64,000 nt of DNA from a virus. The notes beneath the pieces were generated by a model that worked only from the letters and a program-made list of their open reading frames with translations, did not search any database and had not been told where the DNA came from. The stretch's first letter is position 1; each line of letters begins with the position of its first letter. The position numbers and the translations under genes are program-made. Below, piece after piece: positions 10,331 through 27,799 of the stretch. The stretch spans positions 1-64,000 of IMG/VR virus record IMGVR_UViG_3300032294_002877; one strand, 5' to 3'.

Positions 10331-10375
10331 GTCTCACCTAATCCTGCGGATTTGGGATAAGGTGGTATAGTCAGC
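10331..10375 (+). promoter_or_regulatory. Tripartite motif GTCYCA-N10-CGGRTTTG-N12/13-TAGTCAGC, copy 1
   Basis: Recurs 8 times, at 10331, 15559, 22655, 22830, 24235, 24366, 26163 and 26327. Confidence 0.6.
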
Positions 10376-10376
10376 G

Positions 10377-10454
10377 TAAGTCTTTAGCCAGTAAGGACTT
10401 AGAACGAATCGGCGGCGCCCAGTTTGTCGTAACTCCTTATGCAGTAAGGGTTTA
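10377..10454. repeat. Paired 25-bp IHF-like palindrome element, copy 5
   Basis: Halves at 10377-10401 and 10430-10454. Confidence 0.85.
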
Positions 10455-10697
10455 TGATCAAATTATTTTTCTAAAGGTTGGGGCAAAATTGGTCGATAAT
10501 TTATATATAAGGAGAAAAAACCATGTTGACTCTAATTCTTTGGGCTGGTATGCTGGGTTATGGTGTGGGTTATGAGGGATATTCTGATGGGAAACTGTAC
10601 GTTGGTACATATACTCCTAAGGTGGAATATGGGTGGGTTGTGACGGATAGGGGGATTTATTTGGATACGATTCTGGAAAAAAACTGAAATTTTTTGC

Positions 10698-10726
10698 TTG
10701 ACAGGCCGATAAGTATATTGTAGGAT
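10698..10726 (+). promoter_or_regulatory. sigma70-type promoter with GCCGATA spacer box
   Basis: TTGACA-GGCCGATAAGTATATTG-TAGGAT. Confidence 0.75.
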
Positions 10727-10748
10727 TGTGGTATAAGGAGAAAAGAAT

Positions 10749-11057
10749 ATGATTCACGCCGAAGCGGTTAAGATGGTTCGGGGCAAGCGTAATGCTGATC
10801 GTCGCAAGATCGGTAACAATACCTATGCGGAAATCCTATACGATAATACCGTAGCAATTAAGTTGCATAATACCTACGTTGTGAAGATTAACCCAAACGG
10901 TACATATACGTTAAATAGTGGCGGATGGCAGACCGTTACCACTAAGGATAGAATTAACCAGTACAGCCCTGTTAGGGTTTACCAGCGGGATTTTACTTGG
11001 TATGTTAAGATTAACGGCAAGGAATATCCTTTTATGGATGGGATGGTGGTGTCGTAA
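10749..11057 (+). CDS. Hypothetical phage protein
   Basis: AAGGAG RBS; 102-aa ORF. Confidence 0.7.
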   Translation: MIHAEAVKMVRGKRNADRRKIGNNTYAEILYDNTVAIKLHNTYVVKINPNGTYTLNSGGWQTVTTKDRINQYSPVRVYQRDFTWYVKINGKEYPFMDGMVVS

Positions 11058-11344
11058 TGAGTTTTTTCGGATTGTTGATATTGACAATCATTGTGGGGAT
11101 TGGTACAATTATCGTAGGGGCTGTTTTAGCCGAAACCTTTTTATCTATTCTTGACGATTAACATAAAGGAATCCACGGATGGATCTGATAGAACCTATTA
11201 GTTTCGTTTTCGGCGTAATTAGTGGAATTACCGCGTGTTATGCGGTTAGTGATCTGGTGTTCAGCAAGGAGACTAGCAATGAACGCGACGAAATCTGAAA
11301 AACTGTTTCTTATTGGTTCGTTTTTTGCTGGGTGTGTTTTATCG

Positions 11345-11422
11345 TATCTCCTTTGCCTGTAAGAACTTAGGGCAAAAGGGCGGCGCCCGGCTCGCCGTAA
11401 CTCCTTACGCACCAACGACTTA
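11345..11422. repeat. Paired 25-bp IHF-like palindrome element, copy 6
   Basis: Halves at 11345-11369 and 11398-11422. Confidence 0.85.
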
Positions 11423-11701
11423 GAGCGAAAAAAATTTTTCTAAAGATTTTGCTTGACTCTTGCCGATCTATACTGTAGAATCGAATGCAGAAGAAAGAAA
11501 GGTGAGATATGAAAACGAAGAAGCAAAACGCGTACCAAAAAGCGGTTGCTCGCATGGAAAAGGAAACAAGCCGTGCGGTTGCTCATGTGGAATTGCTCCA
11601 GAAGCTATACGCTGAAATGGTCAAAAAAAATGCTAAAGTTTCCTCTTGACAAGTGCCGATTATTCTGGTAGACTGAACCCATCACAACGGAGAAGATTAT
11701 C

Positions 11702-11854
11702 ATGTTCAATTTTGACGAAGTGAACGCGATTCTGGCCGAGATGCGAGATGGTGGTATGGTCGAGCCGATTGACGATCCGACTATCAACGTGGATTTTTGG
11801 GACTGGGCCGATGTGATCGGTGTGGTCGAAGATTTTGAGCCTTTGGAATTTTGA
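11702..11854 (+). CDS. Small acidic protein, 50 aa
   Basis: MFNFDEVNAILAEMRDGGMVEPIDDPTINVDFWDWADVIGVVEDFEPLEF; GGAG RBS and promoter at 11646-11674. Confidence 0.6.
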   Translation: MFNFDEVNAILAEMRDGGMVEPIDDPTINVDFWDWADVIGVVEDFEPLEF

Positions 11855-11864
11855 AGAGGAAGCC

Positions 11865-12122
11865 ATGAGTCACCCTGACCCCTTGTTCGATCCCGATAAC
11901 GTTTTGGAGGATGATATGAACTACGCTGATGATGTTGACGCGTCGAACTACGACGATTATGATGATTTTTACGGCGAGATTGATGCTGATGAATTGGAGA
12001 ACAGTTGGGATGATTCGTATGATGATAGTATGGATGGTGATTCTGAGTCTGCGTTCGGTTCATGCGGATGGGGTTTGGACGAATATTACAACCCCGATAC
12101 CGATCACGGAGATGATTGGTGA
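11865..12122 (+). CDS. Extremely Asp-rich protein
   Basis: GAGG RBS; MSHPDPLFDPDNVLEDDMNYADDVDASNYDDYDDF... Confidence 0.7.
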   Translation: MSHPDPLFDPDNVLEDDMNYADDVDASNYDDYDDFYGEIDADELENSWDDSYDDSMDGDSESAFGSCGWGLDEYYNPDTDHGDDW

Positions 12123-12189
12123 CTTGACTTTTGACAATTGTGTGGTAAACTAGTTTTAGGTTTTAGGGTTTTCTAACTGAAAGGTTTTT

Positions 12190-12600
12190 ATGAACGATTG
12201 GATGATTCTTGCTGGTGTTTTTGGTATTGTTCTTGCTGGTATGGTTACGTTTGCTCTGTATCATATCTATAGTGGTGTTCACTCTACTTTGGCTAATGCC
12301 CAAGTTGGTGAGGTTTACAATTTCGAGTATCTTCAGCCGCATCATGGCGATCCGGTTAGGGTTCTCGCAAGAGTAATTGAGCCTGCGTGTACGCTGAGTG
12401 ATGAGAGTATCCGTAGGCTGAATGCGACTAGTAACTATCGTGTTCACGATCCGGAATTCAAGCGTACTCGTCACCTTGTAACGTGTGAGACTCCGAATGG
12501 TGAGGTTCGACAGTTCTATGCTGAACGTGCAAAGAACGTGCGTCGTCCTCTTCTCGCGGGACTGCTTTTCCGTACAGGTACTGCACACCTGTTCGCGTGA
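12190..12600 (+). CDS. Hypothetical protein with N-terminal TM segment
   Basis: AAAGG RBS; hydrophobic N-terminus. Confidence 0.7.
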   Translation: MNDWMILAGVFGIVLAGMVTFALYHIYSGVHSTLANAQVGEVYNFEYLQPHHGDPVRVLARVIEPACTLSDESIRRLNATSNYRVHDPEFKRTRHLVTCETPNGEVRQFYAERAKNVRRPLLAGLLFRTGTAHLFA

Positions 12601-12630
12601 ACGATTGTTCAGTTCGGTTAACCCTGGCCC

Positions 12631-12708
12631 TAAGTTGTTGCCACGCAATGACTTAGGGTTCGGGGGCGCCACCCGATTTGACGTAACTCCTTATCCTCCA
12701 ACACTTTA
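12631..12708. repeat. Paired 25-bp IHF-like palindrome element, copy 7
   Basis: Halves at 12631-12655 and 12684-12708. Confidence 0.85.
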
Positions 12709-12951
12709 CGTCTCAATAATTTTTTCTATATTTTTCTCTTGACACTTGCCGATTATACTGTAGAATAATCGCATGAACACTAATAACTGCTATGCCGGAT
12801 TTTCGTGGCGTGTTTTCAAAAATAATCGGTTCGCCGGTTATGTTGTGGCTCTGAGCCAGACGGATGCTATACGCAAAGCCGTCGAGAAGTATGGTCGATA
12901 TGTGTGGGTTGAACGGATTACCTATAGTCGGGTCTAGTCAAGGGAATAAAT

Positions 12952-13413
12952 ATGTTCACGGTCAATCATATGAATCGGGTTTTGTGCGAAATCAAGGGAT
13001 TGGGTAGCAAGAGTGTGTTTTCTATTCGTAAGAGTCGCCTGACTTATAGACTTTCTTGCATGAATAGCCAACACCGTGGTGCGATTATTGAGAAGATGAT
13101 TCGGGATAGGTTCATTATGCAGGGTAAGCGGGTTAGGTATATCGGGGGAAGTAATTCGTTCGATATGCTGGTTGATGGTGAGCGTGTGGAAATCAAGTCC
13201 TCTCTGCCTATGGTGATTCCTACCAAGAAGGGTCATACTCTTTTCTATAGGTTTCAGAATATCAAAACTAAGTATTTTGATAAGATTGTACTGGTTTATG
13301 TTAGTCCGAATGGTTTGAGGGTAAAAACTTTCACTAAAAAGACTATGATGAAGATGCTGCGGAAGAGCAAGTATTATGCCAACGGCAAAATGTATGCGTG
13401 TGCGGCAAAATAA
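12952..13413 (+). CDS. Putative PD-(D/E)XK nuclease-fold protein
   Basis: E...FDMLVDGERVEIKSS, resembling the D-x(n)-E-x-K active-site motif. Confidence 0.55.
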   Translation: MFTVNHMNRVLCEIKGLGSKSVFSIRKSRLTYRLSCMNSQHRGAIIEKMIRDRFIMQGKRVRYIGGSNSFDMLVDGERVEIKSSLPMVIPTKKGHTLFYRFQNIKTKYFDKIVLVYVSPNGLRVKTFTKKTMMKMLRKSKYYANGKMYACAAK

Positions 13414-13477
13414 TTCATGGTTGTGTGGTTGACAGCCGATACCGTATAGTATAGAATCTAGACAAAGGGAGAGAAAA

Positions 13478-13984
13478 ATGCCTAACTGGTGCCTGAATAG
13501 ATTGGTTGTTTCTCATAGTGATTCTAGTATGCTTGACCGTTTTATAAAAGCATATAATAGGGGTACTGTTTGTAATGAGTTTCTGCCAGAGCCAAAAGAC
13601 CTTGACCAAGATGACGATATGGGGCCTAATGGTTGGTGGACTTGGAGAATTGAAAACTGGGGAACCAAATGGGACATTGGTGCTGATGAGGGGACTGATA
13701 GGGAAGAATGGCATGGTCGGAAGGCTCAAATTGTAAATAATGAAGTTGTTTGTTCGTTTGACTCTGCTTGGGCTCCTCCTATTGGTTTGTATAAGGAGTT
13801 GGTTCTGCAAGGGTTTAGGGTTGCTGCATCATACTTTGAGCCGGGTATGAGTTTCTGTGGCGAATGGATCGACGGCACTGATAACTATATCGAATACGGT
13901 AATAACAAGAATCTAATTACTAAACAGATTTGGGGGGACTACAATCTCACAGAGTTTTTTGCTGACGATGAAGTAGAAGCCTAA
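13478..13984 (+). CDS. DUF1281/YubB-like ferredoxin-fold protein
   Basis: MPNWCxN start, WRIENWGTKWD and FDSAWAPP motifs. Confidence 0.7.
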   Translation: MPNWCLNRLVVSHSDSSMLDRFIKAYNRGTVCNEFLPEPKDLDQDDDMGPNGWWTWRIENWGTKWDIGADEGTDREEWHGRKAQIVNNEVVCSFDSAWAPPIGLYKELVLQGFRVAASYFEPGMSFCGEWIDGTDNYIEYGNNKNLITKQIWGDYNLTEFFADDEVEA

Positions 13985-13995
13985 TAGGTTCGCTC

Positions 13996-14073
13996 TAAGT
14001 TCTTGATACCAAAGGACTTAGGGCAAACCCGCGCCGCCCGGCTCGACGTAAGTGCTTGGTAGCAAAAGAGTTG
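13996..14073. repeat. Paired 25-bp IHF-like palindrome element, copy 8
   Basis: Halves at 13996-14020 and 14049-14073. The left half contains TATCAAGAACTTA on the minus strand, an exact WATCAANNNNTTR match. Confidence 0.85.
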
Positions 14074-14138
14074 CATCAAAAAAATATTTTTTCAAGAAAC
14101 CCTATTGACAAGCCGATAATAGAGTGTAGAATGATGGA

Positions 14139-14455
14139 GTAAGACAAAACAATATGCGTGGGTCCAAGCGCACGGACTAGATTGGGATAACCTGTACGAT
14201 AAACCCTTACCAGCGATTGCTGTTTGGGTTGCCTAACGGGGTTATACGTTGGGATAGTATACCAGTCTATGGGGGATCGCGTCCTCACCACGCTCCATAC
14301 AACCAGTAACCGTCACCAAGAGCCAGACTAACCGGAACATGATGCTAGCAGTTCATCCGGTTACAGGGAGGTTTCCGTGGGCGGTTTCCATCCGATCCTG
14401 ACAAGGGACAATCGTATGGTCTATAGGAATCGGGGCGTAAAAGATTCCGCTGGTT
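14139..14455 (+). ncRNA. Candidate structured ncRNA, about 310 nt
   Basis: Own promoter (TTGACA 14105 / TAGAAT 14127), no plus-strand ORF, several helices including TAGATTGG/CCAGTCTA, CCTAACG/CGTTGGG, TAACCGGA/TCCGGTTA and GGAATC/GATTCC. Confidence 0.5.
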
Positions 14456-14509
14456 TTTCTTATTGACTTGCCGATAAAGAATGGTATAATAGTGGAATAG
14501 GAGAGAAAA

Positions 14510-14740
14510 ATGACCGTTAACGAACTTATTGAGCAGTTGAAGAATTATCCGTCTGATATGCGTGTGCTTGCTCTTGGTTATGAGGGTGGGTTTGACGATA
14601 TCAATCTGAAAACGGATGATATTGTATTCAATGTGAATAATAAAGATACCTGGTATATGGGTTCTCATGAGACTGTTGATATGTGTGGAGAGTATGGTAA
14701 TAGTGGTGAGAAGTGTTTGATTGTTATAAGGGCTAAATAA
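14510..14740 (+). CDS. Hypothetical phage protein
   Basis: AGGAG RBS; promoter at 14463-14490; MTVNELIEQLKNYP start. Confidence 0.7.
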   Translation: MTVNELIEQLKNYPSDMRVLALGYEGGFDDINLKTDDIVFNVNNKDTWYMGSHETVDMCGEYGNSGEKCLIVIRAK

Positions 14741-14997
14741 TGGAATGGCTTAGTTTTTTTGGTTATCGTCGCCCTATCAACGGTCAGAAAGTTTATTACT
14801 TTGGGCCATATATTGGTGTGTGGCAGGGGAGGTATGAGATTCATAGGGATGATCCTGTGAGTGAACATATTCTTATTTGTGAGGAAACTCCGGGGGTTGT
14901 AGATCGTATGGATGCTCCGTGGTGGATGCCATATGAGGGACAACCAAAGCCACAACGACCAGAAACTGACTATCCAAAGGATTACCCACATGGCTAA
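14740..14997 (+). CDS. Hypothetical protein
   Basis: Overlaps the upstream stop (TAATG). Confidence 0.6.
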   Translation: MEWLSFFGYRRPINGQKVYYFGPYIGVWQGRYEIHRDDPVSEHILICEETPGVVDRMDAPWWMPYEGQPKPQRPETDYPKDYPHG

Positions 14998-15330
14998 AAA
15001 CTTCAAAGACTTGCATACCGTTGATGCAAAAGACATGACCCGTGATCAGGCTATGATCTATGTTATTAACTTTTTTAACTCTCGTATGGCAACAATGAGT
15101 AACTCTCACAGAAATAAGGTTAAAGAGGTTATTGGATTGCATGAGATTGGTACTAGCGAACTCGTTAATAAATATCTGGAGTTGGTCCTTGAAAATTCTT
15201 GATACTAGTTGCAAGTGTGGACGCTGTGATGGGTCTATCTTTCGTGTGGACAAGTATGGTATTCCATGGTACTGGTGTTCTAATTGCGAATGGTGGTACC
15301 TAAAAGACTGGGAAGATGTTTGAATCGTCG

Positions 15331-15408
15331 TAAGTGATTGGGATATAAAGACTTACGACAAAGCGGCGCCACCCGATTCGCCCTAACTCTTTATGCTGCA
15401 ACAACTTA
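15331..15408. repeat. Paired 25-bp IHF-like palindrome element, copy 9
   Basis: Halves at 15331-15355 and 15384-15408. Confidence 0.85.
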
Positions 15409-15470
15409 CGACTAAAATTATTTTTCTAAAGAATCCTCTTGACTATCCCGATAATAGATGTATACTTAGG

Positions 15471-15564
15471 GAGCAAGTAGATTAGGGCCGTTGGCAGAAT
15501 GATATCAAAGAAGCCGCGGTTAAATGCAAGGCCGAGTATGGCATAACCCAATCTATTTGTTTTT
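15471..15564 (+). ncRNA. Candidate small RNA, about 90 nt, with paired 5'/3' ends
   Basis: Starts just after TTGACT-16-TATACT (15439-15466). CAAGTAGATTAGGG pairs with CCCAATCTATTTG (one bulge). Ends in a T run. Confidence 0.5.
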
Positions 15565-15622
15565 CCTAATCCTTCGGATTTGGCTGGAGTGGCTGTAGTC
15601 AGCGAGAATAAAGGAACACTTT

Positions 15623-16018
15623 ATGCAGTGTAGGTCCATTGCTGTTGGTATGATTGAGGAAACTTATGATACATACAAGCGTGTGTGGTCTATCGATGGT
15701 AGTTTGTTTAGCGAATTAAATAAATTCGATATTCCTGTATGGAATAATATGAATAGCGACACAAAACGTGCTGCTATCGAATATGTTTATCAAAATCGCA
15801 ATACTATCGAACTACACTCTGGAGAAGTTGAGTCTTGGGTACAGGCTACGGCATATTTCATGATTATGAATTTTGCTTCTATTTTGAGCCCTGATGTTGA
15901 GCCTGAGATTGAGGTCTTTTTTGACGATATGGATTTTATGATAGACGAAGATGTTTTGACTGATAGTGATGTTCAAGAGCAGATGGGTATTGGAAAAAAT
16001 TTCACTGATAAGTTTTAA
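15623..16018 (+). CDS. Hypothetical protein
   Basis: AAGGA RBS; acidic C-terminus. Confidence 0.65.
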   Translation: MQCRSIAVGMIEETYDTYKRVWSIDGSLFSELNKFDIPVWNNMNSDTKRAAIEYVYQNRNTIELHSGEVESWVQATAYFMIMNFASILSPDVEPEIEVFFDDMDFMIDEDVLTDSDVQEQMGIGKNFTDKF

Positions 16019-16058
16019 AGGTCTTGACAAGAGTTAGCCGATAATGTATACTAGAACC

Positions 16059-16484
16059 ATGAAAGCAAAACAACTACATGGCGAGGTACGATTTCATTTG
16101 AGCAGTGGCGAGCATTATATGCACTGGCAAGTGAAGGTGAAGAAGGGTGGTAAGACTGTGGATGTCTACTATTATGATCCATCTGAATACCAGTTAGAGA
16201 TGAGAGGCTGTAAACTGTGGAATAGGCCGAATAAGGCTAAACAGGTGTTTGAGGCCGGTGTGCATGATGTGAGCGGATGGGTAAGGTGCGAAGAGGTTAT
16301 GCTTCGTAAGGATTTTCATCCTACTCTGCCTATTGACAATCTTGAGAAGTTATTTTATAATCCACTTCGTGATCCTCACTGGCGACGAGAAAGCGACAGC
16401 AACGAATTCATTTGGGATGGTAGCGAGTATGCTACGCTATTAACTAACGGCAAACAAGTTTACATTTTGGAAGAAAGGGTTTAA
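16059..16484 (+). CDS. Hypothetical protein
   Basis: Follows promoter 16024-16052. Confidence 0.65.
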   Translation: MKAKQLHGEVRFHLSSGEHYMHWQVKVKKGGKTVDVYYYDPSEYQLEMRGCKLWNRPNKAKQVFEAGVHDVSGWVRCEEVMLRKDFHPTLPIDNLEKLFYNPLRDPHWRRESDSNEFIWDGSEYATLLTNGKQVYILEERV

Positions 16485-16485
16485 T

Positions 16486-16857
16486 ATGATCAAGTTGGAA
16501 CTGAGTGTTCGTGAGGCTATGAATCTGGCGACGAACTGCCACCTCGATATCTATGAGCGGATCGTAAACGCTTTCGAGGTTGCGTTGGGTGTTAACCAGA
16601 ATAAGATGGTGACGATCACCAGAGGTATGACTCTCGACAATCGTATTGGTTGCATCAAGGCCATTCGACTCCATACTGGTTGGGGATTGAAGGAGGCAAA
16701 GGAGTGGACGGATTTTCTGGTGGGTGGCTGGAAGTACGACAAGTGGAATCCTGCTCCTACTGGTAGGACGCAGAGTATCACTCTCAAGACTCCCGAAGCG
16801 GCTGAAAATCTCCTCCGCGATCTTGTTGGTTTGGGTTGCGAAGGCTATCTTTCGTAA
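16486..16857 (+). CDS. Protein with ribosomal bL12 (L7/L12) C-terminal-domain-like motif
   Basis: RIGCIKAIRLHTGWGLKEAKEWTD resembles the bL12 CTD motif KIxVIKxVRxxTGLGLKEAKxLVE. Confidence 0.7.
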   Translation: MIKLELSVREAMNLATNCHLDIYERIVNAFEVALGVNQNKMVTITRGMTLDNRIGCIKAIRLHTGWGLKEAKEWTDFLVGGWKYDKWNPAPTGRTQSITLKTPEAAENLLRDLVGLGCEGYLS

Positions 16858-16859
16858 CC

Positions 16860-16937
16860 TAAAGCCTTGCAACTAAAGAACTTAGAGCGAGGCAGCGGGG
16901 CCGTGTTTGCCATAAGTCCTTATGTCACAACAACTTA
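16860..16937. repeat. Paired 25-bp IHF-like palindrome element, copy 10
   Basis: Halves at 16860-16884 and 16913-16937. Confidence 0.85.
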
Positions 16938-17131
16938 CAGCCAATCAAAAAAATATTCATGTATCGACCTTGACTTGCCGATACTATATGGTAGAATGAT
17001 AGCATCACACGACAAGACGCTAACTGACCACAACACAAAAAAGTTCAGCCTAGCACTTGACAAGTGATGTTGTCTGATGTATGATTACTTTACTTGGTTC
17101 GATTACACTTTTGGAAAGGTTAGGTTTGACT

Positions 17132-17389
17132 ATGCGTACTTATGATTTTGCGGTTGCTGTTGCTTCTGATTCGCTGGATACCGAGGTGGTTGAGGATACG
17201 ATCAAGCAGGCTCTTGCTGACGGTCTGCCCGATGGTACGCTTGTGGTCGTGAAGGCCCAGGGTATCAAGGACTATTCCGAGCAGGGTTGGAAGGTTGCTC
17301 GTAACCGTAAGTTTGGCGTGAGTGCCAAGGAAGCGGGCGATGCCCACAAGGCGAAGTTGACGCGAATTGACGAGGCGACACCCGCCTGA
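17132..17389 (+). CDS. Hypothetical protein
   Basis: AGGT RBS; upstream TTGACA promoter. Confidence 0.65.
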   Translation: MRTYDFAVAVASDSLDTEVVEDTIKQALADGLPDGTLVVVKAQGIKDYSEQGWKVARNRKFGVSAKEAGDAHKAKLTRIDEATPA

Positions 17390-17399
17390 CAATTCAAAC

Positions 17400-17644
17400 T
17401 GGACTATGCCAGTATAAAGAGATTTTAGGCATAGTGCGGCGGGATTCGTCCCGCGTAATGAGAGTTCGTTGCAGACCTAGGTGCAGCCTAGAGAGGGATT
17501 TAACCAATCCTATAAGACGGGTGGTTCCGTCGAAAGTTGTTGCTCTCTAGAGTTTTATTACTAATATAGATGGTACAACAACGCCAGCAAACCGATAGAC
17601 GCTGACGAGCCCCGGCGGTAGCACCGTCCGGGCTATCGGTCTAT
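17400..17644 (+). ncRNA. Candidate multi-hairpin structured RNA directly upstream of the tRNA cluster
   Basis: Helices ACTATGCC/GGCATAGT, GCGGGA/TCCCGC, CTAGAGAG/CTCTCTAG enclosing two hairpins, ACCGATAG/CTATCGGT, and GTTGTTG/CAACAAC (possible pseudoknot). Confidence 0.55.
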
Positions 17645-17716
17645 GGGGCCATAGTTAAATGGATATAACACGGGATTTCTAATCCTGTATTGTAGGTTCG
17701 ATTCCTACTGGCCCTA
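17645..17716 (+). tRNA. tRNA-Arg(TCT)
   Basis: Acceptor GGGGCCA/TGGCCCT; anticodon loop TT-TCT-AA; GGTTCGATTCC T arm. Confidence 0.9.
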
Positions 17717-17723
17717 CTTTTTT

Positions 17724-17797
17724 GGGGGTGTAGATCAATTGGTTAGATCGTTAGCCTGTCACGCTAAAGGTTGCGGGTTCAAGTCCCGTCACCCTCG
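17724..17797 (+). tRNA. tRNA-Asp(GTC)
   Basis: GGGGGTG/CACCCTC; TTAGC-CTGTCAC-GCTAA. Confidence 0.92.
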
Positions 17798-17800
17798 CTA

Positions 17801-17883
17801 GGTGGATTACTCAAGTGGTCAACGAGGGCAGACTGTAAATCTGCTGGCTTTTGCCTTCGGGAGTTCGAATCTCTCATCCACCA
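17801..17883 (+). tRNA. tRNA-Tyr(GTA)
   Basis: GGTGGAT/ATCCACC; GCAGA-CTGTAAA-TCTGC; long variable arm. Confidence 0.92.
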
Positions 17884-17961
17884 TAAATCCTTACGTGATA
17901 AGCACTTAGGGTAAGGACGCGGGACCGCGTTTGTCGCAAGTCGTTACTGCACAAGCACTTG
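17884..17961. repeat. Paired 25-bp IHF-like palindrome element, copy 11
   Basis: Halves at 17884-17908 and 17937-17961; abuts the tRNA-Tyr 3' end. Confidence 0.8.
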
Positions 17962-19948: not shown

Positions 19949-19951
19949 TTT

Positions 19952-20036: not shown

Positions 20037-20040
20037 AATT

Positions 20041-20112: not shown

Positions 20113-20353
20113 CTAAAGTTTTGGGTCTTGACAGGACGATAAGAGTATGGTATGATCGAAGCAACCTCAGAGGGAAACATGAAGAAGATCAAGGTTTACA
20201 ATATCGTATTGGAAAATGGTACACAGCATTTTGGGGATATTATTCTTGAGATGGGTATGGATTTTACTTGGACTGACGTGTTCGATGAGATGGAAAAGAT
20301 TTTAGCCGAAAATGTCGATAGTTATAGTTATGAAGAAATAACTTGACACTGTT

Positions 20354-20426
20354 GGGTTTCTAACTCAATTGGTAGAGTAGCGGCCTTTTAAGCCGTAGGT
20401 TCTGGGTTCGAGTCCCAGGGAACCCA
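20354..20426 (+). tRNA. tRNA-Lys(TTT)
   Basis: GGGTTTC/GGAACCC; GCGGC-CTTTTAA-GCCGT. Confidence 0.92.
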
Positions 20427-20477
20427 CTTGACAGTTTAGCCAGTTTGGTGTATGATTGGGGAAAAGGAGAAAGTATT

Positions 20478-20639
20478 ATGGGTGAATACGAATACGATTA
20501 TGATCGTTTGGTTGATGACGCTGATGATCTGATGGAAGATGAGGATTACGGCGATGAGTCGTATGATTGCGACTATGTAAATGAACGCGAGTTTGATTGC
20601 TATTATCATACATTGACAGACGAATTGGCTGACGAATAA
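20478..20639 (+). CDS. Extremely acidic 53-aa protein
   Basis: AAGGAG RBS; MGEYEYDYDRLVDDADDLMEDEDYGDESYDCDY... Confidence 0.65.
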   Translation: MGEYEYDYDRLVDDADDLMEDEDYGDESYDCDYVNEREFDCYYHTLTDELADE

Positions 20640-20737
20640 ACTTTCTCCTCAACGGATGCAACTTGGTGGGACAAGTATTCTATAATAAGGATTATCCTTT
20701 CTCTCTCTTCTAGTACGTTCGAATCGTACCATCCGTT

Positions 20738-21247
20738 ATGAGCAATATTCTGAATCAAAATGTTGAAGATGTTCGGCATACTGCTGATGGCAAATTTATC
20801 CAAGGTGCCAGCCACACTTGTCGAGTGATTAATCACAAATCACGCAATAAGATTATCATCAAGGCTATCTGCGATCTGCGTAAGATTAAAGATAGTTTCG
20901 ACACAATCTCCTGTTGCGGGGTGAGTGGTTTAATGGTGGTTCCACAAATTGCCGAGATTCTAGAAAAGAATATTCTGGTAGTTCGTAAGGATGAACGACG
21001 CTATAGTGAATTCCTAATGGAAGGGGCTGCTCCTTACCGGTATATTATAGTAGATGATCTGGTGTGTTCAGGACGAACGGTACGCTATATCAAGAATACG
21101 ATCTATGAGGATAATCCACGGGCTAAGTGTGTTGGCGTGTATTGCTATATCCCAGATGAGTGTGCGTATGTCGGGGATGAAGGGATTAAACTGTTTCATA
21201 GAGATTTTGGTACTACGCTTCTAAACCCTTACCACAAAACAACTTAG
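20738..21247 (+). CDS. Type I phosphoribosyltransferase-family protein
   Basis: PRPP-binding motif YIIVDDLVCSGRTV. Confidence 0.8.
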   Translation: MSNILNQNVEDVRHTADGKFIQGASHTCRVINHKSRNKIIIKAICDLRKIKDSFDTISCCGVSGLMVVPQIAEILEKNILVVRKDERRYSEFLMEGAAPYRYIIVDDLVCSGRTVRYIKNTIYEDNPRAKCVGVYCYIPDECAYVGDEGIKLFHRDFGTTLLNPYHKTT

Positions 21248-21299
21248 GACAAATCGGGGCGGCCCGGCCAGCCCTAAGTCCTTACGCCACAAACACTTA
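21222..21299. repeat. Paired 25-bp IHF-like palindrome element, copy 13
   Basis: Halves at 21222-21246 and 21275-21299; overlaps the end of the PRTase gene. Confidence 0.88.
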
Positions 21300-21330
21300 C
21301 GTCACGAAAATTTTTCCACAAGTTTTCCGC

Positions 21331-21358
21331 TTGACACGCCGATAAGATATGGTAGAAT
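21331..21358 (+). promoter_or_regulatory. sigma70-type promoter with GCCGATA spacer box
   Basis: TTGACA-CGCCGATAAGATATGG-TAGAAT. Confidence 0.75.
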
Positions 21359-21394
21359 CAGTGAAGTAGAACGAAGTACGATAACACGAAGGAG

Positions 21395-22348
21395 ATGATG
21401 ATGCCTGCTGCTGTTGAAAAGATGATGTTTGTTGGTGCTACCCCGTGGCACGGTGAGGGTACGCAACTCGACGAGAATCCGTCGATCAGCGAAGCGATTA
21501 CCGCTGCTGGTCTGGATTGGGAAGTCGGGACAAAGCCGCTGTTTACGGCGGAGGGTACGGAAGTCAATGCGAAGGCCACCTATCGCAAGAGCGATAATCG
21601 GGTGCTGGGCGTTGTGGGTCCGCGTTACACTCCGTTGCAGAATCAGGATGCTTTCGATTGGTTCCAGCCGTTTCTCGACGCTGGCGAGTGCCAACTCCAT
21701 ACGGCTGGCTCGCTCTGCGAAGGTGAGAAGGTTTGGGTTCTCGCTCAACTCAATCGTGAGAACAGCGAGATTGTTCCCGGTGACGAGGTGAGCAAGTTTA
21801 TCCTGCTGTCTAACAGCCACGACGGTTCAACGTCGATCCGCGTCGGATACACTCCGATTCGCGTGGTCTGCGTCAACACGCTCGCGGCTGCTCATCGCAG
21901 CAACGATAGCCAGTTGATTCGGATTCGTCACACACGCTCCAGCAAGGTCAATCTGGAGAACGTGCGAGATATCATGGATAATATCAACGTGCAGTTTGAG
22001 GCTACTGCGGAACAGTATCGGTTCCTCGCTAGCAAGAATTTCAACCAGAACGATATCAAGCGTTATGTCAAGGTGATGCTCGGTATCGATAAGACTCCGG
22101 ACGAGGATATCAAGACTCGCACGAAGAATATCATGGACGAGATTCTCGCCCTTGTGGAAGGTCCGAAGCAAGCCGCAACCAATGTTCGCGGAACTTGGTG
22201 GGCTGCTTACAACGGGTACAACGAGTACCTCAACTACAACAAGGGTCGTAACGTGAGCAATCGACTCGATTCGCTCTGGTTCGGCCAGAATGGGGTTGAC
22301 AACCTCAAGGCACTCAACACTGCTGTGGAGTTTGCGAACGCCGTCTGA
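21395..22348 (+). CDS. DUF932 (TIGR03299-like) phage/plasmid protein
   Basis: TPWHGEG, AGLDWEV, VLGVVGxRYTPLQN, LLSNSHDGS, PIRVVCVNTL and RIRHT motifs. Confidence 0.9.
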   Translation: MMMPAAVEKMMFVGATPWHGEGTQLDENPSISEAITAAGLDWEVGTKPLFTAEGTEVNAKATYRKSDNRVLGVVGPRYTPLQNQDAFDWFQPFLDAGECQLHTAGSLCEGEKVWVLAQLNRENSEIVPGDEVSKFILLSNSHDGSTSIRVGYTPIRVVCVNTLAAAHRSNDSQLIRIRHTRSSKVNLENVRDIMDNINVQFEATAEQYRFLASKNFNQNDIKRYVKVMLGIDKTPDEDIKTRTKNIMDEILALVEGPKQAATNVRGTWWAAYNGYNEYLNYNKGRNVSNRLDSLWFGQNGVDNLKALNTAVEFANAV

Positions 22349-22372
22349 TCTTCAGTCACGATGAAGAGTGAA

Positions 22373-22416
22373 GCCGCCGTAGGGGTTGCCCAAGACCTCT
22401 GCGGCGGTTTCTTTTT
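22373..22416 (+). terminator. Rho-independent terminator
   Basis: GCCGCCGTAGGGGT / ACCTCTGCGGCGGT hairpin followed by TTCTTTTT. Confidence 0.75.
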
Positions 22417-22435
22417 AATCCGACGACATTTGACG

Positions 22436-22513
22436 TAAACCATTGGTATTAAAAGACTTAGGGCTCGCGGGGGCCGCAAATTTCGTCCTAAATTCAATAC
22501 TGGTAAGGACTTA
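22436..22513. repeat. Paired 25-bp IHF-like palindrome element, copy 14
   Basis: Halves at 22436-22460 and 22489-22513. Confidence 0.85.
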
Positions 22514-23079
22514 CGGAAAATTTTTATAGACAAGCGGCCAGAGTGCCGATATAATGGAAGGGAACGGGCGTAAGGTGTTTGGTGGTAATGGGTTAGGAAG
22601 AAATAGTAAAAGAATAAAATGAAAGATATCGAAAGAATATCACTAGACTAAAATGTATCACCTAATCTGGCCGGTTTGCGGTCTTGGCGATAGTCAGCGA
22701 GAATTATAACATCTATAGTCTACCTAACTCTATGATTCTCAACACCTTGCGTCGAGTGTTACTATATGGTATACTGGAGGATGTGAGAGAAGAGTATAAT
22801 CTCTTGAGATTTAGTCTCAGTATTTTACTGTCCCACCTAAATCATCAGGTTTGCGGTCTTGGCGATAGTCAGCCAAAAAATAGGGGTCTTTTTAAATTTG
22901 TGCAGGAAAGAATGAGGATTATTATATGAATGATATTGAAGCATTTTTCTATTCTTTGCATAGGGCAAAAATTCAGGGTGACTACTATATGGATACTAAT
23001 GATAGTAAGTATCTTGATGCTGCTGGTGATTATTTAAAGGCTGCTAGTATTTTTATTAACAATTTGAAGGGAGATAATT

Positions 23080-23397
23080 GTGAGAATAAATTCACTAGGG
23101 TATAGTCTGTTGATTCTTGCGGCCCTTTGCGGGTGCAAAAATAACAGAGAAATTTCGATCACCTTGCCAGAGGTTGAGGATATTAGTTCTTATGAGTATG
23201 ATTACTATAGCGGACAAAATGCTGCTGTATCTCAGTTTGGTGGGGATAATGATAATGATTTAATTGTCAATCTCCAGAATAAAAGAGTAATATCTTATGC
23301 GTCAGATAATAATCATCAGGGTTATGCTGACGGGTATCATAAGACTCTGGATATTCTTGATGCTCGAAACAATCCGAAATGTCCCGATCTTCATTAG
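23080..23397 (+). CDS. Putative lipoprotein
   Basis: Lipobox-like LAALCGC after a hydrophobic signal. Confidence 0.6.
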   Translation: MRINSLGYSLLILAALCGCKNNREISITLPEVEDISSYEYDYYSGQNAAVSQFGGDNDNDLIVNLQNKRVISYASDNNHQGYADGYHKTLDILDARNNPKCPDLH

Positions 23398-24154
23398 GAG
23401 ATTTTTATGTTGTCCCCAATTAAAGCTATTATAATTTCATCTGCTCTAATTAATCCTATTGATACATCCAAGCCCATTGTTTTATCGGGCGATTATACTA
23501 TTGAGGCTAATGAGTACCTGAGAAAAGTTAGGGTGCCTAGTACTCAAAAAGAAATTATCATTGATATTATGTATCAAGAGATTCTTCAGGAACTCAGAGA
23601 AGAGTCTAAGGTTAAGTATTGGATGCCATAGTCGACACTTGATGTAACCCTTGTATAGTCAAGGGGTTGCGTCAACCGATACCTATGGTATACTGATACT
23701 GACGAGTGCGGGACGCCTGGTTTTAATATTTACACAATACTCCAGTAGAATTTATCTATTGGTTTCCTTTCCAAAAGGGTTTTTAATGTTTGGCACTTTC
23801 CTGACGGTTAGTTTGGTTTTCGGAATCTACAGCGGTCTTTCATGCTGTGGGAGGTGATTCTTAAAATCTAACTACACGCTATTATAGGTCACCAATCAAG
23901 AAAAGCAAGTGTTATGATTAAATTCATTCACCTTTTATCAAGTTAGAGATTTCTAACGAAAGACCTAGAATAGTGGTTAGAAGTATAATAGATATTGTTA
24001 GTATATAGTATATTAACCCCGGACCTGCTAAATATATAATACAATTTCATGGTAGCGTCAAGAAAAGATTTTTTTATACGATACGATAGTAGTATCTTCT
24101 AGAAGCATAATAGTCTGGACACTATCCGGAACTCTTGTTACTATAATCTTATTC

Positions 24155-24227
24155 GCAAGAGTAACTCAATTGGCAGAGTGTCAGGTTTCCAACCTGAATG
24201 TTGAGGGTTCGATTCCCTTCTCTTGCT
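24155..24227 (+). tRNA. tRNA-Gly(TCC)
   Basis: GCAAGAG/CTCTTGC; TCAGG-TTTCCAA-CCTGA. Confidence 0.92.
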
Positions 24228-24431
24228 TTTAATTGTCGCACCTTAAGCATCGGATTTGATGTCTTGATGATAGTCAGCGAGAATGTGAGGTCCAAATGAT
24301 AGAGTGTTAAAAAAAGATTCTGCACTCGTTCGTTCATTTGGTTACTATACCATTAGCATACCACTGTCTCAGGTAATGCTTCGGGTTTGGTTTTTTTGGT
24401 TGTAGTCAGCCAAGTTTAGGGAAATAATAAA

Positions 24432-24839
24432 ATGAAAGTAGAACACTCAGAATTCCAAACAGTAAATGATACTACTTCTAATAAGTATTATACTAAGTTA
24501 GGTTCTCAGGATTTTATGGATGATGAGAGTAATCCTCGTCTTAACACTGAGAGTTCACTAACGTGCGCCAAGAGTGTTAAATCACCATTTTCCAAAACGT
24601 TTACATATGGTGAAACCCCCACATACAAATACTTTATTAAAACCGATCCCAATCACAACCTGTTTAATCCTGTCACTAACTTTTCTGGTATCGCTGCCCG
24701 CCCGAATTTTATCAACAAAATTTGCAAGAGCGAACAGGTTTATACTGAAGTTAATAAGTCTGTTTTTGATAAGTATGTTAGTTTTCTTCGCACTCTTAAT
24801 GTTCAATGGTTGACTAGTGCTCAACGAGAAATGAGATGA
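24432..24839 (+). CDS. Hypothetical protein
   Basis: 135-aa ORF following a tripartite motif. Confidence 0.65.
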   Translation: MKVEHSEFQTVNDTTSNKYYTKLGSQDFMDDESNPRLNTESSLTCAKSVKSPFSKTFTYGETPTYKYFIKTDPNHNLFNPVTNFSGIAARPNFINKICKSEQVYTEVNKSVFDKYVSFLRTLNVQWLTSAQREMR

Positions 24840-25013
24840 GAATATCTTTTTCTCTAAGAGAAAATATAGAGTGTGAGAAAATATGCCAGGGTATACAAAT
24901 GCTAATTCAAAAGAGCATGAATAGTCTGGACCCTAGCAAGACCCTTTTAGTTATTGATTTGATTCAAATAAACCAAGAAACTAATGATCTTATGCAACGA
25001 ATAGAATACAAAC

Positions 25014-25478
25014 ATGACTAATAAAATAGTAACAAACGAGAAACTATTCTACTCATGGAACGACTTTGAGACTGATTGTTACTCATTAGAAAAACAAATT
25101 GACAATAGCAGATGGATTCCTGACTATATTGTAGGGATCAAGCGGGGAGGCTTGATACCAGCAGTAAAGCTTAGTCATCTTTTTGGTAAACCTTTAATCT
25201 TGGTATCGTGTCAAACACGAGACGGAAATTCTTTTGTAGATTTGTTAGAGGCAGAACGAATTCCTAAACAGAAGAATATTTTGATAGTTGATGATATTTG
25301 TGATAGTGGACTAACATTCGAAAAGATTGTTGACACTTTCATAGAAAATAACTTTCTAAGTATACGGTGCTGTGCTCTGTATTACAATACTAGTCAGCCG
25401 TTTACTATTGATTACAACGCGAGAGAGATTGATAGGTTAACGGATAGTAAATGGATAGTGTTTCCTTGGGAGATTTAA
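25014..25478 (+). CDS. Purine (xanthine/hypoxanthine-guanine) phosphoribosyltransferase-like protein
   Basis: IVGIKRGGLIPA and ILIVDDICDSGLT motifs; C-terminal WIVFPWE. Confidence 0.88.
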   Translation: MTNKIVTNEKLFYSWNDFETDCYSLEKQIDNSRWIPDYIVGIKRGGLIPAVKLSHLFGKPLILVSCQTRDGNSFVDLLEAERIPKQKNILIVDDICDSGLTFEKIVDTFIENNFLSIRCCALYYNTSQPFTIDYNAREIDRLTDSKWIVFPWEI

Positions 25479-26124
25479 AATAAGATTTTGAGTTTGACCA
25501 TTCATTCACCCATGGTAAAATATAAGCCAGTGATGGAGCCGGTAACTAACTGAATCGGAGATTCGGGGAGTTGTTGGAATCATAAGCAAATTGTTTTATA
25601 CTTTTTTGTTTATGAGGTGACTTATGAAGACTTGGGTTATTAATAGTGTTAATCGTGAGGACATTCAAAGACGTTATATTGATAGGATACTGGGCGAATT
25701 AGACTTTATGCAGATTAAAGATAGGTTAAGGGACTATCTTAGTCTAGAAAAAGATAAATCGTCTAATAAAGCACTAGAGGCTGAGATACGCCACGAAGCG
25801 CCAGATATATTGGTTGATAATTGGGAGGACTTTGATGAGCCCGCCACCTTAATTAAGGAGGAACCTCATCATGCCTAGATTATTTACAAGAGTAATAACT
25901 TTTAAGATTGAGGGTGAAATTTATGACTCATCCACAACTCCTGAGAGTATTATAAGGAATTATACATTCGCGTTTAAAGATTACGGTGATGGAAAGGATC
26001 ACTGTTTCTTGGAAATGACGCATCATGATACTAGAGGTCGAATTACTAAAATATCAAGATTACCAAATATCAAAAAGTGGAAAAAACCTGACACAGAGTT
26101 CTTCCTAAAGTTGTGATATTGGTT

Positions 26125-26162
26125 AAGATAGCCCCCGACATAAACGTTGGGGGTTTATCTTT
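26125..26162 (+). terminator. Rho-independent terminator
   Basis: AAGATAGCCCCCGAC / GTTGGGGGTTTATCTT hairpin. Confidence 0.6.
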
Positions 26163-27799
26163 GTCTCAGCTTATGCTGCCGGGTTTGGTGACTTGGTGAT
26201 AGTCAGCGAGATTTTGGGATTCTATTATTAGTCTTTTGCATAGAACAATCAATACGAACAAACTAGAAAAATTTATCATTGATATCCAGATCACGAACGG
26301 TTATAATATACTGGTGGGGCAATATAGTCCCAGCTTAACCTCCGGATTTGGTTTTAATGGTTACAGTCAGCAGGGAATAATATGACAAAGAAAAAGAAAA
26401 GTTGTGGCAAGAAGTGTTCTAAGAGTAAATCTTGCAAACGATCTAAAAAGATTATTTGTGATGATCCATTAGTTTATATAGAACCTCTCCAAGAATCTTG
26501 GCTCACCCGAATCTATAGAAAACTATTCGGATCATGATAGTATCTTTATTTGGTCAATCCCCAATTATTGTCAAGAAACCATTAATGCCCGAATTGGTTC
26601 ATGATGATTTGTCCAGAATAATTATTTCAGTAGTATTAATAATCACCACACTATACATCTTATACAGAGTAGGGAAGAGTCTGAATGAGTGAATATAATC
26701 TTGGCCTATTTTATTCACACCCACATGTTCTGATTCCTCTCTGCATAACTTTCTTTTTTGGGACGTATGTTTATCTATGCAATGAATACTACCCAATAGA
26801 TGAGGATTTTTACCAATGAATGAAATTCAGCGACCTTTCATCAAAAGCTTAACATTAGTTGCTATTGTTACTATAGTTTCGATGGGAGCAGTTCGATATT
26901 TTGTTCCAGGCATGATAAATTCATACATAAAATCATCCAATTATACCCTTCACCAATCCCAAGATCACCCAGAATCACGGGATTAATTTCTAATACGTTC
27001 TATTTTTCAACTAAATTGCGCGATTTTTACTTATTAAATTTCGCCGTGGTGAAAATGGGTTAAAGGCCACTATGGGAAATGACCGATAATCCCTATTGAC
27101 AACCCTGTTGCCCTGTGGTATACTGGTACTACTAGTAGTTGGAATAAAGTTAAGAATTTGAGGGGAAAATGTATAAAAATGTATTATTGACCGATAAAGA
27201 AATCGCTATTCTCACAAGGGTCATTCGTGATACTTTGAGCGAAAAGATTGATATTCCTCATACCAATTTGACCATTATTCTGAACCGTTTAAGGGCAATC
27301 AAACCATCAATTACCAATAATCAATTCTTCAATTATGGTAAATAGGGAACAAATGGTATGGAAATGAAAACAATGGATACCAATATGGGCAACCAACCCA
27401 CAACTCTTAACAAACAAGATATTGACGATATTAAAACCGTATTAAATGACCAGTTTGATCTTATTCAAAGATTTGGTAAGATGCCCGTGTCTAGTTTGGA
27501 GAACTGGAAAGAATATCAGACTATTTATCAAGATATTCTAGAATGTAATAAGGTAATGATGGAGATAGTTTGTGGGCCTGTTGGCGGAATTGAGAAATTA
27601 GTGGAAAGAAACAAATGACTAAAGATACTATCAGTTTTACCAAAGCGGAAATCGGCTATTTACTCCAAATTGCTTATGAGAGTAGGGATGAAGGTAGTTA
27701 TTGGGGTAATCATAAAGATTTTATTAAACGACAAAATAATGTTATCAAGAAATTAGAGAGTGCTTATGAGAAGGTTAATGGGCTTGTAGGGGAAAATAA

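Follow-up and report, generated by a model that had tools for sequence, protein, structure and literature searches.

To our knowledge, almost nothing is known about temporal control in large uncultured phages. In phage T4, middle transcription works by sigma appropriation by AsiA and MotA. The MotA box of T4 lies 12 ± 1 bp from the −10 element (PMC2988021). T4-type phages also carry PeSL (promoter-early stem-loop) elements, regulatory cassettes that recur in the genome and through which shuffling takes place (PMC2839356). In the early promoters of phage N4, the inverted repeats have their center at −11, adjacent to the start (PMC4496689). Here we analyze a dispersed motif in a virus genome of 180,460 bp (IMG/VR record IMGVR_UViG_3300032294_002877). 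Positions are those of the record, and "the window" is its first 64,000 nucleotides.

Motif copies, consensus, and distribution

The genome contains exactly eight copies of the motif, all on the plus strand and all between 10331 and 26371. All eight starts given in a preliminary description of this DNA (10331, 15559, 22655, 22830, 24235, 24366, 26163, and 26327) carry it, and a genome-wide scan yielded these full copies and no more: nhmmer, with a profile of 108 homologues, recovered each of them (E values of 1e-9 to 1e-14) and found no further full copy in the whole genome. The composite TTTG-N10-16-AGTCAG occurs eight times on the plus strand of the 180,460 bp and not once on the minus strand, and TAGTCAGC occurs 11 times in the window versus 1.17 expected. 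As previously described, six of the eight copies form three close pairs, with spacings of 131 to 175 bp.

The consensus, 45 bases in all, is (T/A)GTYYCNSCTAATCC-N3-GGATTTG-N12/13-TAGTCAGC-SARAAT. The string by which the motif was originally described, GTCYCA-N10-CGGRTTTG, is exact in only three of the eight copies, although the motif itself is real at every site. The blocks GT, CTAA, G-TTTG, TG, and TAGTCAGC do not vary. Among 114 distinct copies, the gap between TTTG and TAGTCAGC was 13 nt in 97 and 12 nt in 13; the remaining four values (17 to 36 nt) resemble chance or nested matches. Within the N12/13 gap lies a 9-nt (at times 8-nt) direct repeat, TTG-xxx/NTG-xxx, and the variable triplets of its two units covary. 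Such co-change of two repeat units in a gap of fixed length is unusual, and it reflects either a specificity code or the concerted evolution of two tandem repeat units that are constrained in length. Entire gap variants are common to non-orthologous loci. It is conceivable, but in our judgment distinctly unlikely, that the element is "addressed," that is, a constant scaffold plus an exchangeable 12- to 13-nt cassette of a duplicated TG-xxx word, with variants that circulate between loci and genomes. Were this so, the variant would set the factor, time, or condition that fires a given copy (or, for an RNA, its partner), and the whole would be a modular system, reprogrammable at the promoter or RNA level, with no described counterpart in phages.

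A truncated relative of the motif (CCTAAT plus AGTAGTCAGCGA, without the palindrome or repeat part) is located on the plus strand at 56681 to 56702, about 8 nt ahead of an intron-bearing tRNA-Leu; nhmmer reports no full copy there.

The motif is conserved in relatives: over 100 homologous copies were found in IMG/VR contigs of related phages. Genomes that bear it have six to nine copies each, on the same strand and in the early gene region, and the carriers belong to one clade of large uncultured freshwater (lake) phages. This clade, which is widespread in freshwater, also uses sigma70 promoters and its own sigma. In a set of 185,579 species genomes of bacteria and archaea, the full consensus was present in only five contigs, all of them phage-like freshwater MAG contigs; thus, the motif is not a host promoter class. 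At least 24 early-module genes match its presence/absence pattern and, consequently, no single gene can be singled out. The clade-specific early proteins gave no informative family matches.

Known promoter classes and the phage sigma factor

We agree with the earlier view that the motif matches neither sigma70 nor sigma54, as the geometry of neither fits. A sigma70 promoter has a TTGACA-like −35 and a TATAAT-like −10 (A at −11, T at −7), 16 to 18 bp apart. In the motif, TTTG and TAGTCA are 12 to 13 bp apart, and because TAGTCA has A, not T, at −7, unmodified sigma70 should not use it. If xRTAGT is taken as the −10, G falls at −11 in 35% of the copies; if TTGxxx-N17/18-GAGAAT is taken as the promoter, +1 would fall beyond start codons that lie 5 to 12 nt past the box. 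In sigma54 promoters (TGGCAC-N5-TTGC), a GG at −24 and a GC at −12 are separated by exactly 10 bp. The GG (alignment columns 40 and 41) and GC (columns 51 and 52) of the motif are 1 bp too close, and the second G is missing in 21 of 108 copies.

A search of the phage for sigma and antiterminator genes found an ECF-size sigma (G000, 92062 to 92646) and no NusG-like gene. The sigma is real by its profile matches: TIGR02937 matched residues 12 to 189 with 52.8 bits (cutoff, 42.9), and Sigma70_r4 matched with 45.4 bits. The motif could then be the promoter of this sigma, with GGATTTG as the −35 and GTCAGC as the −10, 14 to 15 bp apart, and the resulting GGA..-N15-GTC layout is loosely like the ECF promoter pattern GGAAC-N16-CGTC. 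Promoters of such a sigma are expected ahead of the genes that it controls, which are usually the late ones and often include its own. However, the motif has just six to nine copies, all in the sigma70-promoter-rich early region (10 to 26 kb), and the late half, the surroundings of 92 kb, and the stretch in front of the sigma gene have none. Furthermore, orthologues of the sigma (48 to 68% identity) occur in motif-free relatives that are 94 to 100% complete (G008, G010, G012, G014, and G015). Because these near-complete or complete relatives have the sigma and no motif, the two are not linked, and we regard this explanation as highly improbable. Thus, of the earlier proposal of a promoter class for a phage or ECF sigma, the promoter class stands as the best single reading, but the sigma link does not. 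No phage RNA polymerase was detected in the phage; two giant ORFs without family matches look tail-like.

Context of the copies and a candidate promoter

Motif copies lie 0 to 8 nt past tRNA 3′ ends, gene ends, or terminators, and the start codon, tRNA, or strong sigma70 promoter that follows them is 5 to 40 nt away. The 0- to 8-nt adjacency to tRNA ends was seen with at least five different tRNAs, and at two related loci the motif is 7 to 8 nt ahead of a tRNA. Four of 128 copies start exactly at the end of the T tract of an intrinsic terminator, versus 0.35% of random positions. The sigma70 promoters of the early region are near-consensus; the late half of the genome has neither sigma70 promoters nor the motif.

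The following features are all on the plus strand. Downstream of copy 1 (10331 to 10375; nhmmer E value, 2.8e-11) are a double-palindrome module and, after it, sigma70 promoters at 10526 and 10698. Copy 2 (15559 to 15603; E value, 1.5e-14) is about 85 nt 3′ of the predicted start of a sigma70 promoter (15439 to 15466), and after it come a Shine-Dalgarno sequence and an ATG at 15623, 20 nt past AGTCAG. A strong terminator (22370 to 22411) and a promoter (22527 to 22555) precede the first pair, which consists of copy 3 (22655 to 22698), with a 12-nt gap, and copy 4 (22830 to 22873), followed by a gene at 22926. Between them, a sigma70-type promoter, TTGCGT-N17-TATACT (with TG), was read from the sequence at 22745 to 22773; its CTTGCG box is conserved at the equivalent place in relatives. 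In the second pair, copy 5 (24235 to 24278) comes immediately after tRNA-Gly(TCC) (24155 to 24227), the 3′ end of which is 7 nt ahead of it, and copy 6 (24366 to 24410) is followed by the Shine-Dalgarno sequence AGGGA and an ATG at 24432, 22 nt past AGTCAG. In the third pair, copy 7 (26163 to 26207) begins at the end of the T tract of an intrinsic terminator with a 10-bp stem (26130 to 26155), and copy 8 (26327 to 26371), which ends in CAGTCAGC, precedes the gene for a small Lys/Cys-rich protein, with its ATG at 26382, 11 nt past AGTCAG. A sigma70-type promoter, TTGATA-N17-TATAAT, occupies 26279 to 26307 between these two copies. All three pairs enclose a promoter, which in the first and third is clearly of the sigma70 type.

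Our first-ranked reading, which we put forward tentatively, is that the motif is a clade-specific non-sigma70 promoter with a geometry like that of T4 middle promoters. Each copy would be a self-contained, oriented transcription-start module in the early and tRNA gene region of one freshwater phage clade. TAGTCAGC would provide a GC discriminator and, with TAGTCA at roughly −12 to −7, an element like the −10, the (R)TTTG box would be fixed 12 to 13 bp farther upstream with its center near −30, and the 13-bp palindrome AATCC-N3-GGATT and the GT and CTAA boxes would stretch the contacts to about −50. From the sequence we infer that RNA polymerase would start at the motif, at a conserved A about 6 to 7 nt past TAGTCA, and that host polymerase would be redirected there by a putative early factor of the clade rather than by the ECF-size sigma.

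The fixed geometry around a gap of free sequence fits a promoter, as does the fact that the motif is always at the start of something. So does the finding that for 33 of 100 copies the interval from 300 nt upstream to 100 nt downstream is free of strong sigma70 promoters, yet genes follow them. No ATG is closer than 5 nt to AGTCAG, and at this minimum spacing the first base of the codon coincides with the predicted +1. In two gene families the orthologues with an ATG 8 to 12 nt away mostly have no Shine-Dalgarno sequence, whereas those with an ATG 14 to 21 nt away have one. The minimum distance and this pattern are compatible with mRNAs that begin just past the motif. In three orthologues, however, a Shine-Dalgarno-like GAGG or AGGG begins right after AGTCAGC, so that a start would be needed inside or before the box. 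Also against a promoter are the A at −7, the lack of co-occurrence with the sigma, the negative search for a phage RNA polymerase, the copies in leader RNA (see below), the low number of copies per genome for a promoter class, and the co-change of the two gap-repeat units, for which a promoter model does not account.

If the motif is a promoter, some early protein must redirect host polymerase, like MotA/AsiA in T4, and it should be sought among the roughly 24 clade-specific early genes. Through the motif, what is probably a second class of transcription in the early region (or a leader signal) becomes precisely testable.

Alternatively, the motif may be a DNA site for a clade-specific protein but not a promoter. 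As an operator, roadblock, or insulator with a fixed orientation, it would mark cassette boundaries and control the sigma70 promoters nearby, and it would also be a PeSL-like crossover point for cassette shuffling. The pairs in the window do run motif, promoter, motif, gene; 39 of 100 copies end 8 to 41 nt 5′ of a strong promoter; and the 13- to 19-bp imperfect palindrome, CCTAATCC-N3-GGATTTGG, has no strand bias and is typical of dimer operators. Nevertheless, we think such a site unlikely. One-third of the copies have no nearby sigma70 promoter to regulate, and an operator needs neither strict co-orientation nor tight abutment to start codons and tRNAs. The distances from the motif to the downstream sigma70 −35 boxes (8 to 41 nt) show no helical phasing, and so the motif is an independent module, not an activator site. 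A search among the clade-specific genes found no candidate binding protein. Mosaic junctions, like the gap variants common to non-orthologous loci, agree with a DNA site: one upstream flank family is joined via the motif to six downstream families and, conversely, one downstream family is joined to five upstream families. But because mosaic junctions are expected at any conserved intergenic repeat, they are uninformative about primary function.

The palindrome and RNA structure

The motif may also act as RNA, as a transcribed cis element in leaders or between cistrons whose hairpin and single-stranded boxes are bound by a phage or host protein. Its job might be nut/put-like antitermination, an endonuclease cut that separates tRNAs and mRNAs, or translation control of the next gene. 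We consider this possible but doubtful. Several copies are certainly also leader RNA, because they are 13 to 90 nt downstream of a sigma70 start; the copies at 15559, 22655, 22830, and 26327 are at about +85, +93, +47, and +13, respectively. The order of linear box, 5-bp hairpin, and linear box resembles boxA/boxB, and a copy number that can be as low as six in a genome is more in keeping with nut-like sites than with a promoter class. Like a processing spacer, the motif can abut a tRNA on either side, and the GAGG or AGGG directly past the box in three orthologues implies that the stretch is in mRNA.

The hairpin itself differs from that of the preliminary description, which had CGGRTTTG as the loop between short stems such as ATCC/GGAT. 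This is not general. In the 108 homologues, copy-specific pairing is confined to AATCC-N3-GGATT, where GGRTT forms the 3′ arm (z = −6.5); the 5′ arm pairs with the segment after it no better than expected by chance (z = −0.5). Covariation in the 5-bp helix is modest (12 double-change cells versus 4.1 in shuffles). At pair 19-27, C is matched by G in six of six cases and C·A is never seen, and one divergent copy retains the helix with other arms, CCTGA/TCAGG (pairing judged by eye). This copy-specific complementarity favors an RNA. On the other side, RNAalifold found no consensus fold for the motif, and the helix averages −3.1 kcal/mol versus −3.0 for the opposite strand (P = 0.67). Because it is equally stable on both strands, there is no G·U signature of plus-strand RNA. 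The variable gap repeat has no pairing partner within the motif or in the 300 to 400 nt around it. Copies just before a strong promoter would have no downstream RNA to act on, and some copies begin at the T tract of an efficient terminator. An Rfam scan of 9 to 28 kb at E ≤ 1 matched tRNAs and a Pistol ribozyme but no motif copy. With no consensus fold, a helix of about −3 kcal/mol, and about 40% of the copies before a promoter, the nut/put-like element proposed earlier gains little from these results.

An intrinsic terminator has a GC-rich stem of at least 5 to 7 bp followed by a U tract. The motif has the stem AAUCC/GGAUU and then only UUUG, and no copy was among the terminator-like sites. 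That copies are 7 to 8 nt ahead of tRNAs and 5 to 20 nt ahead of start codons also argues against a terminator role.

Comparison with known systems

Like PeSL (PMC2839356), the motif copies are repeated, co-oriented intergenic cassettes among small accessory genes, at junctions where the gene content of related phages differs and across which flank families have been reassorted. PeSL, however, consist of a canonical sigma70 promoter and a terminator hairpin, and the motif has neither. With lambda nut (boxA-boxB) and HK022 put sites the motif shares the low copy number, the orientation with transcription, a short hairpin between conserved linear boxes, and, for some copies, a location shortly past early promoters. 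In contrast to those sites, to which it has no sequence similarity, its hairpin is very weak, many of its copies are before promoters or after terminators, and no N-like or NusG-like factor was found. The early promoters of the N4 virion RNA polymerase (PMC4496689) resemble the motif in being few, co-oriented, and located in the region expressed first. They, too, have conserved bases and a short inverted repeat, the arms of which are free to vary as long as they remain complementary. However, the palindrome of the motif lies about 30 nt ahead of the putative start, and a giant virion polymerase is not detectable in this phage.

T4 middle promoters (PMC2988021) differ from the motif in sequence (TGCTTtA/TAtaaT versus TTTG.../TAGTCAGC) and in number (about 60 in T4 versus 6 to 9 per genome), and the motif has A at −7, blocks to about −50, and an internal 9-nt gap repeat; no homologue of MotA or AsiA is evident. 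A middle promoter of the T4 type has an excellent sigma70 −10 element, of whose bases TAGTCA keeps T at −12 and A at −11 but not T at −7. The likeness is one of layout: in T4 promoters, and in the predicted layout of the motif, a phage-specific box near −30 is 12 to 13 bp from a −10-like hexamer that starts with TA, and the motif gaps of 13 nt (97 copies) and 12 nt (13 copies) are within the T4 spacing of 12 ± 1 bp. Both kinds of site belong to the prereplicative region, where many are in tandem with early sigma70 promoters and some precede tRNA genes. T4 middle promoters do not depend on a phage sigma or polymerase, and nor would the motif as a promoter.

Distribution of the motif

The window covers the first 64 kb of one virus contig of 180,460 bp and 35% GC that CheckV rates as complete. 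The preliminary description placed eight copies of the motif at 10331, 15559, 22655, 22830, 24235, 24366, 26163, and 26327; all eight are present on the plus strand, and a profile search of the whole genome recovered the same eight and no further full copy. The 3′ box, TAGTCAGC, occurs 11 times in the window versus 1.17 expected, a roughly 10-fold excess, and the composite TTTG-N10-16-AGTCAG has eight plus-strand and no minus-strand occurrences in the whole genome. A shortened relative, CCTAAT plus AGTAGTCAGCGA, lies near 56.69 kb, about 8 nt 5′ of an intron-bearing tRNA-Leu.

Two exact-pattern scans of IMG/VR, with chance single hits discarded, yielded an alignment of 108 distinct homologous copies. 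Their consensus is (T/A)GTYYCNSCTAATCC-N3-GGATTTG-[gap]-TAGTCAGC-SARAAT, in which GT, CTAA, G-TTTG, TG, and TAGTCAGC vary little or not at all. By profile search, six complete genomes of the clade carry 6 to 9 copies each, on a single strand per genome and clustered within ∼5 to 40 kb. The initial observation is solid and holds across the whole phage clade. Among 185,579 bacterial and archaeal species genomes, the full consensus was found only in five freshwater MAG contigs that resemble binned phage DNA, so we rejected a host promoter class. A literature search with TAGTCAGC as the query turned up nothing but primers and unrelated sites.

Genomic context of the copies

Near-consensus sigma70 promoters occur from 5 kb to ∼88 kb of the genome, on the plus strand only, and are almost absent from the late half. 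The strand layout of the genes is sharply divided: nearly all between 2 and 140 kb are on the plus strand, and all large structural-looking genes between 140 and 180 kb are on the minus strand. GC content drops from ∼45% (8 to 22 kb) to ∼33% past 24 kb. Many strong early promoters have a conserved word, (G/T)CGATAA, in their spacers (TTGACA-N2-8-CGATAA-...-TATAAT); it is similar to a FliA-type −10 sequence and was seen at 15439 to 15466, at 22527 to 22555, and at many related loci (e.g., L106, L004, and L005).

In the early region, the motif is invariably found at a boundary. Copies start 0 to 8 nt past tRNA 3′ ends (at least five different tRNAs, one being the tRNA-Gly of the window) or follow gene ends; for 4 of 128, the start coincides exactly with the T tract of an intrinsic terminator (0.35% of random positions do), as at the terminator at 26130 to 26155. 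Downstream, 39 of 100 copies have a strong sigma70 −35 box at 8 to 41 nt, with no helical phasing; others have a tRNA at 7 to 8 nt or a start codon at 5 to 40 nt. The window also encodes a full-length Pistol self-cleaving ribozyme (RF02679) at 17398 to 17460 on the plus strand (52.5 bits; gathering score, 34.5), ∼185 nt upstream of a tRNA-Arg/Asp/Tyr cluster. Directly 5′ of the copy at 15559, a stretch of ∼55 nt, GATATCAAAG...CGAGTATGGC (15490 to 15550), is conserved at the nucleotide level across relatives (homologous loci include L004, L005, L106, L108, L115, and L225); because its reading frames are inconsistent, it is probably a noncoding element.

All three pairs in the window are ordered motif, promoter, motif, gene, and in two of them the enclosed promoter is clearly of the sigma70 type (22745 to 22773 and 26279 to 26307). 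For some copies, transcription as part of a leader RNA is therefore also certain. The flanks are mosaic: across the motif, a single upstream family is linked to six downstream ones, and a single downstream family to five upstream ones. Bracketed promoters and mosaic junctions would suit a DNA site other than a promoter, an operator or a boundary analogous to PeSL (PMC2839356), as would the palindrome described below. However, 33 of 100 copies have no strong sigma70 promoter within the 300 nt upstream and 100 nt downstream that were searched, and we consider such a site unlikely.

Downstream genes begin as close as 5 nt to AGTCAG. Two families, a small Lys/Cys-rich protein and a "MITTIK..." protein, have mostly no Shine-Dalgarno sequence when the ATG is 8 to 12 nt after AGTCAG and a good one when it is at 14 to 21 nt. 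The first of these, very basic (M-x-KKK..C..C..C) and encoded at 26382 to 26537, always directly follows one motif copy, as do its orthologues in G001, G004, G005, G009, L003, L015, and L026, often with no Shine-Dalgarno sequence; it may bind nucleic acid and is a candidate partner for the motif. Downstream of the copy at 22830, a nine-codon upstream ORF (GTG...TGA; 22909 to 22928) overlaps the ATG of the gene at 22926 in ATATGA, which looks like translational coupling.

A short palindrome and no consensus RNA fold

In several copies, hairpins with different stems had been described with the CGGRTTTG core as the loop. That account needs correction: the sole complementary covariation in the alignment is in a 5-bp helix or palindrome, AATCC-N3-GGATT, whose cells are 90% paired. 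Its arms show copy-specific pairing (z = −6.5), and the pair at columns 19 and 27 is TA in 78 copies, TG in 14, CG in 6, and CA in none. The covariation of this stem is modest. RNAalifold gave no consensus structure. The helix is weak (mean, −3.1 kcal/mol versus −1.4 for shuffles), equally stable on the opposite strand, and without any extension that we could find; no motif copy matched Rfam.

These results bear on the suggestion that the motif is an RNA element, whether nut/put-like, for processing, or a translational operator. The box-hairpin-box layout and the copies located in leaders fit this idea, but a consensus structure and strand asymmetry are both lacking and ∼40% of the copies lie just upstream of promoters or directly after terminators. 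An RNA element is possible, with the balance against it.

A duplicated word in the gap

Of the distinct copies, 97 have a gap of 13 nt between the TTTG box and TAGTCAGC, and 13 have one of 12 nt; other lengths are not credible. Unexpectedly, the strongest mutual-information signal in the alignment, between columns 32 to 34 and 41 to 43, reflects identity rather than complementarity. These columns are the triplets that come after TTG and NTG, at a distance of 9 nt from each other (8 nt with 12-nt gaps), and they use all four bases (columns 33/42: CC, 26; TT, 25; GG, 17; AA, 11). This covarying duplicated word in a fixed gap is the motif's one truly odd feature.

Gaps differ between phages at loci with matching upstream and downstream flanks, and the same variants reappear at unrelated loci; judged from these comparisons, motif copies exchange gap "alleles" drawn from a limited set. 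The duplicated word may reflect a two-unit tandem repeat evolving in concert, within a spacer constrained in length and not in sequence, or it may have a role in specificity. No variation in unit number was seen among the copies. Neither the complement nor a same-sense copy of the repeat is enriched within 300 to 400 nt of the motif, and the repeat shows no copy-specific pairing with the arm or flanks, nor with the 5′ block or the 3′ box. A coding origin was rejected: several copies have TAA or TGA in the one frame that avoids the invariant stops, and TAGTCAGC has no synonymous variation. Column compositions do not fit a T-box-like UGGN (tRNA 3′-end) sequence or an anticodon-loop mimic.

Candidate reading factors

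The preliminary description offered, as one of two options, a promoter class for a phage-encoded or extracytoplasmic function (ECF) sigma factor. The phage does encode a 194-amino-acid (aa) sigma70-family protein of ECF size (TIGR02937, Sigma70_r4) at 92,062 to 92,646 of the genome, outside the window (L229:1069-1653), with orthologues in ∼75 related contigs (39 to 77% identity). Its link to the motif fails: five related genomes that are 94 to 100% complete (G008, G010, G012, G014, and G015) encode the sigma and lack the motif, even at relaxed stringency, and G005 and G011 have the motif with a more divergent sigma. A promoter for the phage's own sigma is consequently very improbable. With only about five near-consensus sigma70 promoters past 88 kb, the protein is probably the late sigma, and the discordant distributions indicate that it is not tied to the motif.

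Searches of the phage gave no match to a multisubunit RNA polymerase, none to a T7-like polymerase (for which the control was uninformative), and no N4-like polymerase. Giant ORFs gave tail, baseplate, or RCC1 matches or nothing; the PDB had no match for them, and their atlas features are tail-like. Two adjacent ones (2318 and 2191 aa; 138646 to 152177, minus strand, outside the window; L241) drew no sequence match from Pfam or the PDB and essentially none from PHROG, and their language-model features lean toward tail or baseplate. The antiterminator search found no NusG/RfaH-like protein in the phage. In a tblastn presence/absence screen, the entire early module at 10 to 27 kb (≥24 ORFs) follows the motif, which leaves no individual gene standing out as the factor; Pfam and PHROG matches in the module (DUF932, DUF7227/GP88, and phosphoribosyltransferase-like and metallophosphatase-like proteins) were uninformative.

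Comparison with known promoters

We tentatively favor a promoter-type module as the best reading of the motif. It would account for every context: copies that follow terminators or tRNAs, those that immediately precede tRNAs or start codons, and those in tandem with early promoters. It would also account for the unphased placement, strict orientation, and rigid two-box spacing. With TAGTCA as a −10-like element, transcription would start on a conserved A (columns 56 and 57), a predicted position that coincides with the nearest ATG observed. Against this reading, the base at −7 of the hexamer is wrong, our searches found no factor, copy number is low, and three orthologues have a Shine-Dalgarno-like sequence straight after the 3′ box. 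The probability left by the four readings goes to something else. The motif is a new variant among known kinds of phage regulatory signal. In T4 middle promoters the MotA box lies 12 ± 1 bp from the −10 element (PMC2988021), and the two boxes of the motif have the same spacing.
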